A DNA stretch of 56,819 nt, the filler included, from Novakomyces olei (Eukaryota), in assembly GCA_016906335.1 (NCBI GenBank). It is 2 parts of 2 records of this genome, joined end to end, with 100 filler letters (N's around TTAATTAATTAA, not from the genome) between each part and the next. Parts side by side here need not be neighbours in the genome. Positions count along the whole stretch, not along the records: positions 29,794 to 56,819 come from JADEYG010000010.1; 1 more part is not named here. One strand, written 5' to 3'. The translations under genes were made by a program, and so were the position numbers. Below the pieces are notes generated by a model. That model had not been told where the DNA came from. It saw nothing but the letters and a program-made list of their open reading frames with translations, and did not search any database. Positions 30,927-41,052 of the stretch are shown here, one piece after another. How positions within the stretch are numbered: position 1 is the first letter of the stretch; each line of letters starts with the position of its first letter.

Positions 30927-31045
30927 CGGAAACGTTCCCGATCGCTGAGTGGGTACGATATAGTCAATACTGATAAAGTGAGAAGGAGCTTACCTTTGTG
31001 TTACTTTCTTTATTCTATAAATACCTGTTATCGGAAGCGCTACCG
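30927..31045. promoter_or_regulatory. Two CGG-N8-CCG sites upstream of the FAD oxidase
   Basis: CGGAAACGTTCCCG at 30927-30940 and CGGAAGCGCTACCG at 31032-31045, with neighbouring GATAA sites. Confidence 0.65.
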
Positions 31046-31199
31046 CGAGATACGTGGGCGCAATGTAACCTGCCTTTCGGAGAGCGATCTGGTCTTACAT
31101 CAGATACTCCATCTTTATGGACTTAATAAAGACTGAGTAACTACTTGAACTTAATTAGCAATTACAGTTCTGCTGCTTTGATATTTGAAGACGCGCAAT

Positions 31200-32624
31200 A
31201 TGAAAATTCAAAAGTCAGACCCAATAATCATAGTTGGTGGGGGCGCTTATGGTCTTTCGACTGCACTCCATTTGTTGCAAGATGGTTTCACCAACCTATC
31301 CGTCTTTGAAAAGAGCGAGACAATTCCTCCTTTACAGTCGGCTGCGAATGATCTCAACAAAATTGTGCGAGCGGAATACGAGGAGCCATTCTATTCGGAT
31401 TTGACCTTGGTAGGCAGTATACTTTTTTTCAATAAACATATTTTTGTTCAATTTTGATCCGGTTTAGACATCGGCATAAAATGTTTTGTGCTATCATCTT
31501 TGGCTATTTACAGTTTTATTAATTTATCAGAAAGCAATTGAAGCTTGGAAAACTCCTCTTTTTGCGCCACATTTCCACCAAGTTGGTTTCGTCCACTGTG
31601 TGTCTGGAGCTGCTCCACAGGAAGCACAAAACACTCTAAACAGGTTCCAGAAGGCGGCGGAAAATAATCCGGTTCTAAAGCCTCATGTGAAACCAATTAA
31701 CGGGCCCGTCGACGTGCATGAAACTTGCTGGCAATTCAATCAGGGCCAAACGCCAGGCTGGAAAGGCTACGTCAACTACTATGACGGTTACGCACACTCA
31801 GGAAATGCTCTTGTTTCTGTCTTTCGAGCCACAATTTCATCTGGCGTAAAGTACTTCTTGGGCCTCAATACGAAGTCAAGAAAGTGATTTACGGTAAGCC
31901 TGTGTCTCAGAATTTTGCCGGTGTTCAAACAAAAGACGGTAAGATTTATAAGGCCGCGCTCGTTATTGTAGCGGCTGGAGCGGCAGTTGGACGCTTGATT
32001 CCAGAACTTGGAAGGCAAGTCGTTGCTAAGTCTTGGTCTGTAGCCCATGTCCATTTGACGGACGAAGAAACGTCGGCTTTACGTGGAATCCCTGTCACTT
32101 ATGCCCGTGATTTAGGCTTCTTTTTCGAGCCTGATCCAAAGACAAATTTGTTGAAACTGTGTCCCATGGGTGGTGGCTATATCAATACTGACCCAATGAA
32201 TGGAGTATCTTATGCTCCGGAGTCTTATGGAGATAGTGCGTTTATGCCAGAGGAGGACGAAAAGAAAGTACGGCTTTTACTAAAGCAAACCCTACCTTAT
32301 TTGGCCGATCGCCCTCTGGTGCAAAAGACACTTTGCTGGTTTGCCGATACAAAGGACACAGATTTTATTTTCGATTATGCCCCAAATTCTAATTCTACAG
32401 TACTTGTAATGTCTGGTGACTCTGGCCATGCTTTCAAGATGTTTCCAATAATTGGTTCATGGATCGTCGATCTTTTGAAGGCTCCCAATGGCCAACAGAA
32501 TACAAAGCGCTGGCGCTGGAAGGAAGCTAACGACAAAAAAGAGAAATGGGCCGGAGAAGTCAGCTGGCGGCTTGGCGCAAGCACAGAGTTTGCGGATATC
32601 AAGCAGCCAAGGTCCAAACTATAG
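31200..32624 (+). CDS. FAD-dependent oxidase, monomeric sarcosine / L-pipecolate / fructosyl-amino-acid oxidase family
   Basis: IIVGGGAYGLSTALHL, SAANDLNKIVRAEY, intron 31410-31530, GFFFEPD, LCWFADT (flavinylation Cys), GDSGHAFKMFPIIG. One frameshift at about 31870. Confidence 0.92.
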
Positions 32625-33099
32625 ATCTTGGCAACAGAATTGGGATTATTATTATTAGAATTATTTTTAGGTAAATAGTAAAAACATTTTCTTTTGAATT
32701 GGGAATCATGCTGAGCTTGAACAAATTAGATATAATAAAAAATCAATTGAAATCGGGGAAAAATTACAGTGAAATGCAAAGGTGTAGTGTGAAGAAGAAT
32801 GGGCAGCAATGTGAATTTACTAATGATAACAGTTGTCTTTTCCTTCGACAGAGGCCAGCTGCACAAATTAATAAGATCAGATATACAAAAATATCAGTGA
32901 TGTGACTATAAATGCTCTCAGTTATAAGACCAACATAATGGGGGTAAGTGTTTAAACCTTTATTTGCAATATGTAAAAAAGGCTTTTTAAACCTAAGAAA
33001 CAATGTAATTAGATGTATACCAATGTTGGAAAAGAAATTTATCATATCGTACATAATTAGTGACCGAGACTGACTAAATGGAGATTCTGTCGCGAACAA

Positions 33100-38881: not shown

Positions 38882-39293
38882 ATTATTTCGTATGAAGTGT
38901 TAAACAGCACAGTAATCCCAGTCCGCTAGCAGCATTTATAAGCAAATTATTACAGTATTTTACTAATTTTATTGCGGCCTAGAACGAGAACAATTGGTCT
39001 TCAGATGAAAGGGAAACCGATTTCTTGCCAACTCCATTCTCTAAAAGACGAGGAAAACTGGCTAGTTTTTGCATTATATACTTCTAGACTCTTATTTCTA
39101 GATTGCCTAGCCGCCATCAATCCATATTAACGTTCGTTTTCATCGGCTTCGAACTTCTATTCAAGGATTAATATAATAATAAATAATGCCAAAATATTTG
39201 CCCGACGAGTTTTAACCATTGCTCAATTAATGATACAATATTATGAAGTTCTTACATCTAAGCTTTGACATAATGATTAAATTGGCTATGCAA

Positions 39294-40785
39294 TTATCCT
39301 TTTAGCGCGTTGGCTATAGATTCGCCACGTACTCAACATTTCCTGGATTAAGACCAGCAATGGAAATACGGAATTTCCGCCATATATATATGGTATTCCT
39401 CTTCATTTGTTAGAACAATCGATTATTGGATATAAGATGATAAAAACCTTAAGTTTCCGAACAATCTCCGGAGACAATCCAGAAGCCGAACATGCCAGTC
39501 TGCTTGATTAAATGGTCCCAAGTCCAGGGGCACCTTCGATATTAGTCAACAGTTCTAGTCGATATGATTAAATGAAATGCTGAAGGAGATACCTAATGGA
39601 AAGCAGATTCTATATAATCTTTCCCTCATCAACCGAATCCTTGAGCTCATAGTAATCAAATCTCGGAACATTCTTGGCCGAAGATCATCATTGGTTAGAA
39701 TATTTGTAGCGATTTTAGCCCCGTAAGCCGGAGGATTGGAGATTTCAGATCGCTGCAGCATTTCAAGCATAGATTGACTATTAATAGCTGACGTTGTGCT
39801 GTTCGTCTTGAGAACAAAGCATCCAACTCGTTCTCCTAGAAAGTAAAAACAGTCAAATAACTTTCAGAATAGAAATGCAAACCCAAATTTCTAATTAACA
39901 TTAAAAAATCATCTTGTCAAGCTTCTTACCATAAAGACCCATATTTTTAGCAAACGATACACAAACTCCAGCTTCCATATGTAATTCGCCGATGATGTAG
40001 TGAATAGCAAACGCGTCGTTATCAATATTTCCAGAGTTAAATCCCAGTACGCGGCATCAAGCAGAGGGAACATTTCTTTAATTTTCAACAATTTGCACAA
40101 TTTTACCCACTGATCTCGGCTTGATCACAGCCAGTTGGATTATGAGCACAACAATGCAAAATGACAACTGACTTATCATCTGCCGCTTCCAAATGAGAAT
40201 AATACGTATCAAAGTCCAAATCTTTAATTCTTCATTATAATATGCAATTTTTCACACTTGAAGCCTAGCGAAGAAAAACTTGGGAAATGATTCGACCAGG
40301 TTGGCACAGGAATATAAATTTTTGGTAGAGTTTTTGGGATGACATGCCCTTAGAAGCGCTCCTGCCACATGCAAAGAGCCAGTGCCCGATAAGGTCTGAC
40401 ATGTTGCAATCTGAGATTAGCCCTTGACCAATTAATCTCATTTATACATTTTAGACACATTCGAAAATGAATAGATGTTATACTTGTCTTGAGACTTTGC
40501 ATAAATCTCTGAGCCCAGAACCAGCTCGGCAACAGACTGCCTAAATTAGGCAGTCCTAGAATTGGAAGGTATTCATGATTCAGACCCTCATATGCTAAGC
40601 TTTCGCGGCTTTTCCTGACAGATGGCAGGATCCATGGTTGTCCATTTTCATCACGATATGTCCTTGTCCCAGATTGACTTTTCGTGTATCAGTGCTTTCT
40701 GAAACTGTGCAGTCAGTGCAAAAATAGCATCAGGAGGAACGTATATGGCGCACGCCAGAAAAGACGGCGTCTCGTCTTTTGTCAT
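39294..40785 (-). CDS. Aspartate aminotransferase (class I PLP), spliced, frameshifted
   Basis: VPPDAIFAL, KVNLGQG.YRDENGQPWILPSV, HEYLPILG, QTLSGTG, PTWSNH, LHCCAHNPTG, DAAY, SFAKNMGLYGE|RVG (PLP Lys), RSEISNPPAYGAKI, QTGMF, RISIAGLN. Confidence 0.93.
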
Positions 40786-41038
40786 TTTTGCCGATCCTGC
40801 TATTGAGCCCAAAATAATGGGTTCTTTTGAGAGGCACAAGGCACGTAGTCCTATATATATGTACATATATATATTTGCCGGACCTCATCGAGTGTTCTGC
40901 GCTTTCGCCTTTATACATAGCTCAATTCTCCAGAGATTACAATAGTGCTATAAGTGAATTGAGGTCAATTTTCACGTTATTGGAAGTATCTTGAGTTGTT
41001 CTCATACCCTGCGATACTTTTGCGAAGTTTCTTGGACA

Positions 41039-41052
41039 CGGAAGCGATCCCG
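41039..41052. promoter_or_regulatory. CGG-N8-CCG site in the aminotransferase/aldolase divergent promoter
   Basis: CGGAAGCGATCCCG. Confidence 0.65.

Follow-up and report, generated by a model that had tools for sequence, protein, structure and literature searches.

Does a promoter motif that recurs through a gene cluster mark a regulon, and is it read by the transcription factor encoded beside it? This question is raised by a 56,819-nucleotide stretch of DNA from Novakomyces olei (assembly GCA_016906335.1), which we call the window and in which the inverted triplets CGG-N8-CCG recur upstream of predicted amino-acid catabolism genes, next to the start of a gene for a Zn2Cys6 factor. A preliminary description of the window had proposed that an adjacent Put3-like factor recognises the 8-base spacing and co-regulates these genes. 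We found an excess of the N8 spacing in the promoters of the cluster and conservation of the sites in related loci, so that the comparison lends strong support to the predicted regulon. Our analyses make it probable that a cluster-encoded, Put3-like, pathway-specific Zn2Cys6 activator uses the CGG-N8-CCG words as its upstream activating sites. In such a regulon, a homodimer of the activator would contact the palindrome with one zinc cluster per CGG half-site, with one or two sites 150-650 bases before each gene, and in the presence of the pathway substrate as inducer the dimer would switch on all cluster genes together. The predicted targets are the genes for proline dehydrogenase, Δ1-pyrroline-5-carboxylate (P5C) dehydrogenase, a sarcosine-oxidase-like oxidase, a P5C-reductase-like protein and an aminotransferase/aldolase pair, probably the regulator's own gene and, in relatives, an amino-acid permease gene.

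The window consists of two contigs joined by a linker at 29694-29793 (44 N, TTAATTAATTAA, 44 N), so features are not readable across this interval. The right contig (JADEYG010000010.1) begins at 29794, and everything reported here for the motif and the cluster lies within it.

CGG-N8-CCG sites in the window and in related loci

The five CGG-N8-CCG sites of the preliminary description (30927, 31032, 35137, 38868 and 41039) are all present where it had placed them. Three of them start with CGGAA(A/G)CG, and their AT-rich intergenic setting is borne out by a G+C content of 36-40% in the intergenic stretches. The list was incomplete, as it lacked a sixth upstream site at 38618 and three sites within genes (31658, 37744 and 41811; Table 1). 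Upstream of the oligopeptide transporter (OPT) gene and of a gene then called unknown, where no exact site had been found, we too found only candidates with one mismatch (42722 and 36768). The left contig and the flanks of related loci served as the background for our counts. From 30000 to 42500, there are nine N8 sites and 0-3 sites for each other spacing between 0 and 20. The 4,938 bases of cluster upstream DNA hold six N8 sites, as against 0.26 +/- 0.54 in 500 shuffles (largest 3), while the other 20 spacings total five sites with at most one each. N8 is thus the sole over-represented spacing in the cluster promoters, as its role in a regulon would have led one to expect. Over the whole window there are 18 CGG-N8-CCG words, compared with 4.96 +/- 2.21 in 100 dinucleotide shuffles, none of which reached 18 (largest 10), and 3-13 sites for each other spacing; nine of the 18 fall between 30.9 and 41.8 kb. 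The left contig shows no N8 excess (6 sites in 29.7 kb).

Related loci were obtained by scanning metagenome contigs with the 279-residue oxidase exon, which returned 32 fungal loci with 38-68% identity to that of the window. Single linkage at 93% oxidase DNA identity grouped these and the window into 21 lineages, 20 of them without the window. The related loci carry the same cluster together with the full regulator, as identified by tblastn and Pfam, typically in the order reductase-like (-), proline dehydrogenase (-), a gene that we call X (-), oxidase (+), regulator (-), [permease (-), DHDPS-like (-)] and P5C dehydrogenase (+). Other clades have these genes in a rearranged order, and the aminotransferase and aldolase genes are missing from some loci. 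Taking the 700 bases before each tblastn gene span as its upstream region, we counted 69 N8 sites in 37.8 kb of upstream DNA from the 21 lineages and 2-21 sites for each other spacing (N7 came next with 21, then N9 with 12). The gene bodies of these lineages hold 29 N8 sites (4-43 for other spacings), which is no excess, and the remaining DNA holds 27 (8-36); in all 32 loci together there are 179 N8 words, compared with 23-94 for each other spacing. In the 20 lineages other than the window, 63 upstream N8 sites were found where shuffles gave 5.25 +/- 2.3 (largest 14). An unbiased dyad scan of these 20 lineages, which compared all trinucleotide pairs at spacings of 0-16 between upstream DNA and the rest, ranked CGG-N8-CCG first of 35,355 dyads (63 observed, 8.3 expected); the next-ranked dyads were sub-words of CGG-N8-CCG, a CCCCGC word and GATA-type words.

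The sites are spread over nearly all genes of the cluster. Among the 68 upstream regions of at least 300 bases, 58 have an N8 site, whereas the other spacings occur in 2-22 regions; the window's aminotransferase/aldolase promoter, which has a site, is among the shorter regions that were dropped. By gene, a site is present in 17/19 regions for the oxidase, 12/12 for proline dehydrogenase, 9/9 for P5C dehydrogenase, 5/6 for the reductase-like gene, 9/14 for the regulator, 5/5 for gene X, 1/1 for the permease and 0/2 for OPT. The gene called unknown in the preliminary description is P5C-reductase-like, and the window is the one exception among the six lineages. Gene X shares the oxidase promoter sites in relatives. 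The OPT gene was considered as a member of the regulon and rejected, as it has no site and relatives have an amino-acid permease instead.

Conservation in orthologous clusters extends to position: in the 20 other lineages, sites occupy matching places upstream of the same genes. Most lineages have two sites ~140-210 and 280-380 bases before the oxidase gene, one before the proline dehydrogenase gene, one before the reductase-like gene, and one or two before the P5C dehydrogenase gene. In an alignment of the oxidase promoter from seven lineages (L029:8967-9366, L008:8960-9359 and five more), at both sites the two triplets, CGG and CCG, never vary, and the spacers differ. Between the distal and proximal N8 sites, this promoter in relatives has a palindromic double GATA word, TTATCGATAA, and a CreA/Mig1-like GCGGGG word. 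The conservation of these words, together with the enriched CCCCGC and GATA dyads, suggests that nitrogen and carbon catabolite control may act on top of the pathway-specific factor. Symmetrised base frequencies of the sites are palindromic, T-CGG-R-W-G-(C/G)(C/G)-C-W-Y-CCG-A, and in the 21 lineages the form TCGG-N8-CCGA occurs 24 times in upstream DNA, twice in genes and three times elsewhere. In the main clade, there are 48 N8 sites and at most seven for any other spacing. A sister clade with ~48% oxidase identity (L016, L019, L020, L021, L023 and L027) has tandem palindromes with a 7-base spacer, TCGGATGCCATCCGA, beside its N8 sites, in the oxidase/P5C dehydrogenase divergent promoters.

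The regulator and competing explanations

The regulator gene of the window is a stub of the first ~200 bases, and the contig stops ~20 codons past the zinc cluster. The DNA-binding domain of a relative matched it by tblastn at 29925-29878 (81% of 16 amino acids) and 29882-29817. Cys1-3 and Cys4-6 both lie within 29925-29817 on the minus strand, in frames one base apart; a six-frame scan of the window for CX2CX6CX5-12CX2CX6-8C found no intact pattern, the six cysteines being split over two frames. A 22.5-kb contig of run X1 continues past the end of the window contig at 29794. The adjacent factor named in the preliminary description is thus real as a Zn2Cys6 start, but only its 5' end is present, broken in frame and cut by the junction. 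In relatives, a gene with a Fungal_trans domain adjoins the oxidase gene, 18 of the 32 loci have an intact, highly conserved zinc-cluster domain, and PF04082 follows the DNA-binding domain in L009, L001 and L005; named homologues have both PF00172 and PF04082. When a full-length orthologue (P0001, 709 amino acids) was compared with all PDB sequences, its top match was Put3 (1ajy, E 1.3e-6; 1zme, E 1.8e-6), followed at a small margin by Gal4 (5.5e-6) and then by Ppr1 (1.6e-4), and it aligns with Put3 without gaps over the zinc cluster, the linker and the start of the coiled coil. On these matches, the label "Put3-like" is fair. Some database entries of the family carry the automatic name "proline utilization trans-activator."

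Put3 of Saccharomyces cerevisiae binds CGG-N10-CCG, with a 10-base spacer, and its PUT1 and PUT2 targets encode proline dehydrogenase and P5C dehydrogenase. The likeness to the present system lies in a Zn2Cys6 factor, inverted CGG...CCG triplets and N8 sites before every proline dehydrogenase and P5C dehydrogenase gene with a scored upstream region. The differences are the spacer, the clustering of the genes with the regulator, and the additional oxidase, reductase-like, aldolase and transaminase genes. N10 is absent from 30000-42500 and occurs six times in the 37.8 kb of upstream DNA, which is background when set against 69 N8 sites. The prn cluster of Aspergillus nidulans is likewise comparable in having a regulator, a proline oxidase, P5C dehydrogenase, a permease, a gene of unknown function and Zn2Cys6-dependent induction, with AreA and CreA acting additionally (PMC5983819); GATA words and a GCGGGG word are conserved in the oxidase promoter of the relatives here. 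The account of PrnA in that source gives CCGG-N-CCGG and CCGG-6/7N-CCGG as its sites (PMC5983819). Such words are absent from the 37.8 kb of upstream DNA of the 21 lineages, window included, and the present cluster has four further enzyme genes; we therefore rejected the idea that it is the classical prn cluster. A regulator homologue from the A. nidulans group has 663 amino acids and 48% identity.

The spacing itself is on record elsewhere. CGG-N8-CCG is reported as the binding site of ClrB, which no longer binds once either triplet is lost (PMC13267753). ClrB/CLR-2 shares with the present system the inverted CGG triplets 8 bases apart and differs in its regulon, which is one of plant cell-wall enzymes rather than amino-acid catabolism genes (PMC13267753). 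CGG-N8-CCG has also been discussed for GliZ (PMC4006717) and BcSpd1 (PMC9280406). A full-text literature search with other spellings of the motif returned no further description. The extended half-site T-CGG-R-W-G comes from counts on the present loci alone.

It is extremely improbable that chance or composition, acting on CpG-containing words, accounts for the sites. The spacing was picked in the preliminary description after the sites had been seen, and CGG and CCG words are not rare in the window, but N8 alone stands out among 21 spacings, shuffles fall far below the counts in both the window and its relatives, and the excess was replicated in loci that the preliminary description had not drawn on, where the dyad scan was unbiased. 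The sites are also conserved in position among loci that are not copies of one sequence, as their differing spacers and protein identities of 56-68% attest. A more serious alternative accepts a conserved element and assigns it to another Zn2Cys6 protein encoded elsewhere, either a wider-domain regulator or a ClrB-like factor, in which case the cluster-encoded factor would bind something else. Co-location is the sole link between protein and site here, the same motif is reported for ClrB and proposed for other factors, the cluster factor aligns without gaps with a protein of N10 spacing, and the DNA beyond the annotated cluster parts contains 27 N8 sites. We nevertheless regard another reader as unlikely: the regulator gene accompanies the motif-bearing genes in every lineage that can be judged, despite rearrangements; no other comparably enriched dyad is available to serve the cluster factor; the extended half-site is specific to these promoters (24 upstream, five elsewhere); and 9 of the 14 regulator promoters carry an N8 site themselves.

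A further possibility concerns this genome and is compatible with an activator of the family as a whole, namely that the cluster and its regulator are decaying pseudogenes here and the sites are relics. From 32.7 to 46 kb, the reading frame of all genes shifts every few dozen codons and stop-to-stop open reading frames (ORFs) are short. Frame reading and tblastn place some of these changes within continuous coding sequence, and we rejected introns as the explanation of all fragmented ORFs on this ground. Decay would also account for the early stop and frame change in the regulator stub, for the one-mismatch site of the reductase-like gene, and for tblastn identities to relatives of 26-39% for P5C dehydrogenase, proline dehydrogenase and the reductase-like protein compared with 50-60% for the oxidase. 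Low tblastn identities are, however, the expected product of frame jumps, and six exact sites survive in AT-rich DNA. A look-up for 29794-39793 listed no RNA data set with this sequence, and the contigs compared with it were of DNA. Contigs of the public run X2 cover nearly the entire cluster stretch with very few substitutions and many gap letters (2 other letters and 20 gaps over 41006-42195; 0 and 22 over 42855-43989), which is the signature of assembly indel errors; runs X3 and X4 gave merely short, unlike pieces. On this evidence, the frame breaks are likely insertion and deletion errors of the draft assembly, with decay less likely, and relic status of the cluster seems rather unlikely. 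If assembly errors are the cause, the spacer length of single sites could be wrong. In either case, the window's copy of the cluster suffers from poor sequence quality or from decay and has a truncated regulator, and relatives are for this reason the better experimental material.

Several observations weigh against a cluster-encoded activator that reads N8 throughout. The window regulator is a 5' stub in which the frame changes between Cys3 and Cys4 and the frame of the first ATG runs into a stop, and three of the window's N8 sites lie inside genes. Ten of the 68 upstream regions have no site, including 5 of 14 for the regulator, both for OPT and that of the window's reductase-like gene. These regions were set by tblastn spans and not by gene models, and the lineages are related, so that counts are not independent events. 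N8 dominates, as the preliminary description had it, but is not strict across clades: the sister clade (clade B) has 20 N8 and 14 N7 sites, and L031, whose regulator has a differing zinc cluster, has four N9 sites and one N8. Since the DNA-binding domain and linker align with those of Put3 without gaps, likeness to Put3 would not predict an 8-base spacer. As for the pathway, the substrate is read from enzyme families, which do not by themselves specify it; neither the oxidase nor the reductase-like enzyme has a place in the textbook 4-hydroxyproline route.

A wider idea, possible but decidedly tentative, would tie the clade differences to the activator. Many Pezizomycotina may carry a second, undescribed proline-type cluster apart from prn/PUT, serving hydroxyproline or another imino acid of collagen or plant walls by a mammalian-type route, other isomers being handled by an additional oxidase/reductase pair. 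It would be run by a Put3 paralogue whose spacing has shifted by clade (N8; N7/N8 in the sister clade; perhaps N9 in a third) at unchanged linker length. If this is true, these clusters would offer a natural series for how Zn2Cys6 dimers set spacing.

Genes of the cluster and the predicted pathway

The gene map (Table 1) was drawn from Pfam matches on fragments, PDB sequence searches and tblastn with orthologues. The oxidase has fructosyl amine oxidases as its closest solved structures (E 3.2e-35), with sarcosine oxidases also matched; its homologues are named sarcosine, pipecolate or saccharopine oxidase by database sources, and 31480-32621 corresponds to a single ORF in relatives. The L009 orthologue of P5C dehydrogenase matches the mitochondrial P5C dehydrogenase 4oe4 (E 9.9e-145). 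Proline dehydrogenase matches Pro_dh only weakly in the window (E 0.0018, below the curated cut-off), whereas its orthologues match at E 1e-44 to 1e-47; a search against PDB sequences gave no match for it. Window fragments of the aminotransferase and of the reductase-like gene gave no Pfam match, the former being identified by PDB sequence search and the latter through orthologues, which carry F420_oxidored and P5CR_dimer. The aldolase-like orthologue of L009 matches an uncharacterised fungal structure, 3qfe (E 1.2e-93), and human HOGA1 (E 1.7e-16), and the protein is not nearer to HOGA1 than to DHDPS and KDG-type aldolases. Gene X, of ~260 amino acids and conserved in relatives, was not found in the window when the loci were compared by tblastn; it has no Pfam family, and its Atlas entries are only ascomycete hypothetical proteins.

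Table 1. Features of the window and of gene X in related loci (an empty cell means that no value applies or was given)
Feature	Position	Strand	Basis or remark
Fungal_trans_2 regulator fragment	82-705	+	Left contig, Pfam; maltose-utilisation-like trio
Alpha-amylase-family ORF, intact, 630 amino acids	914-2803	-	Left contig; maltose-utilisation-like trio
MFS sugar transporter	3866-5360	+	Left contig; maltose-utilisation-like trio
Fungal_trans fragment, additional	7164-7718	-	Left contig, Pfam
HNH_2 endonuclease-domain ORF	20006-20539	+	Near telomere-like end
Three Pkinase_fungal ORFs	23539-25425	-	Near telomere-like end
Zn2Cys6 regulator, 5' end only (start codon region and zinc-cluster exon)	29794..30015	-	Cut by contig junction at 29794
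Distal CGG-N8-CCG site, regulator/oxidase divergent promoter	30927..30940		CGGAAACGTTCCCG; 273 bases before oxidase ATG (31200)
Proximal CGG-N8-CCG site, oxidase promoter	31032..31045		CGGAAGCGCTACCG; 168 bases before ATG; TTATC (GATA) word adjoins
Flavin adenine dinucleotide (FAD) oxidase, sarcosine/pipecolate/fructosyl-amine oxidase family	31200..32621	+	Pfam DAO; one frame break relative to related loci
CGG-N8-CCG within oxidase coding region	31658..31671		Probably not regulatory
P5C dehydrogenase	32767..34903	-	Pfam Aldedh on one fragment; tblastn with L009 orthologue spans three frames
CGG-N8-CCG site upstream of P5C dehydrogenase gene	35137..35150		CGGATGCTTTCCCG
P5C-reductase-like gene	35661..36281	-	tblastn with L008 orthologue, E 3.6e-13; N-terminal part further right
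Candidate one-mismatch site TGG-N8-CCG	36768..36781		CCGAT flank; where relatives have the upstream site of the reductase-like gene
Proline dehydrogenase	37031..38325	-	tblastn with L005 orthologue; N-terminus further right near 38,550
CGG-N8-CCG within proline dehydrogenase gene	37744..37757		Probably not regulatory
Sixth upstream CGG-N8-CCG site, near proline dehydrogenase start	38618..38631		Promoter or 5' leader
CGG-N8-CCG site upstream of proline dehydrogenase gene	38868..38881		CGGGCAAAGCTCCG
Aspartate aminotransferase	39558..40785	-	ATG at 40785, frame changes; two fragments match PDB aspartate aminotransferases, E 3.3e-10 and 2e-13
CGG-N8-CCG site, middle of 401-base divergent aminotransferase/aldolase promoter	41039..41052		CGGAAGCGATCCCG
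DHDPS-family gene, 4-hydroxy-2-oxoglutarate aldolase-like	41187..42179	+	Pfam DHDPS; tblastn with L009 orthologue; at least one frame change within coding sequence
CGG-N8-CCG within aldolase-like gene	41811..41824		Probably not regulatory
Candidate one-mismatch site	42722		
OPT oligopeptide transporter	43287..45440	+	Pfam OPT on three fragments
Weak DEAD/DEAH helicase fragment	52932-53126		Pfam E 2.6e-4, below curated cut-off
Gene X, between proline dehydrogenase and oxidase genes	L008:7736-8521; L009:7868-8638; L005:8115-8873	-	Conserved in relatives

Searches returned 388 homologues of the regulator (E <= 1e-10) and 722 of the oxidase (E <= 1e-30), with named Pleosporales, Colletotrichum, Fusarium, Aspergillus and Penicillium among their sources, and in three named genomes the two genes have adjacent locus tags (N7532_002808/09, ETB97_005998/99 and N7459_001743/44). 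The homologue search found no protein closer than ~69% to the window oxidase, and a cluster look-up for two regulator homologues returned names that read only "hypothetical protein." Judging from these homologues, the cluster is conserved across Dothideomycetes, Sordariomycetes and Eurotiomycetes.

The predicted enzyme set fits the breakdown of a proline-type imino acid. The conversion of 4-hydroxyproline to glyoxylate and pyruvate is described as proceeding by proline dehydrogenase, P5C dehydrogenase, a transaminase and an aldolase (PMC3188589, PMC8779045). In the window, genes of all four families (Pro_dh, P5C dehydrogenase, aspartate aminotransferase and the DHDPS-family aldolase-like protein) are adjacent, and because these are the families of a known route, 4-hydroxyproline, degraded by a mammalian-type route, is our preferred candidate and the most likely substrate. 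The four families are those of mammalian 4-hydroxyproline catabolism (PRODH2, ALDH4A1, GOT2 and HOGA1). The fungal cluster is unlike the mammalian route in having its own regulator and extra oxidase and reductase-like genes, in an aldolase-like protein that is only distantly HOGA1-like, and in that some related loci lack the aminotransferase and aldolase genes. Slow growth of A. fumigatus on hydroxyproline has been reported (PMC2526178).

Pathway-specific regulons in which a Zn2Cys6 factor acts through inverted CGG sites are textbook knowledge, and with N8 on record for ClrB the mechanism is not new. The object seems new, being a conserved cluster that joins proline dehydrogenase and P5C dehydrogenase with an oxidase, a reductase-like protein and sometimes an aldolase and a transaminase; full-text literature searches turned up no account of a fungal cluster of this kind or of its regulator. 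Its motif predicts regulon membership, including that of the formerly "unknown" reductase-like gene, and would make the regulon traceable in any genome. Should hydroxyproline prove to be the substrate, the cluster would be relevant to the feeding of moulds on collagen or on the hydroxyproline-rich glycoproteins of plants. Clade-dependent spacing with an unchanged Put3-like linker poses a small, testable question on DNA recognition by Zn2Cys6 proteins.

Surroundings of the cluster

The genes of the left contig, as identified by Pfam on ORFs, are unrelated to the cluster (Table 1). This contig ends in a telomere-like array, (GTTAGGGTTA)x16, at 29525-29693, preceded by two arrays of 15-base minisatellites (26764-27398 and 28468-29044) that are AT-rich with a GC skew of ~+0.6. 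G-skewed, AT-rich stretches similar to the end of the left contig also occur at 49-50.5 kb and 55-56.8 kb. Rfam and tRNA scans of the whole window gave no match, and apart from the helicase fragment of Table 1, ORFs of at least 50 amino acids between 50.7 and 55 kb had no Pfam match. The stretch at 46500-49100, whose ORFs have no Pfam match and which belongs to no Rfam family, is a high-copy repeat: its summed contig depth in run X1 is 58,000, compared with ~1,200 for single-copy sequence, and in run X2 its depth is 96 compared with ~5, with many variant contigs.

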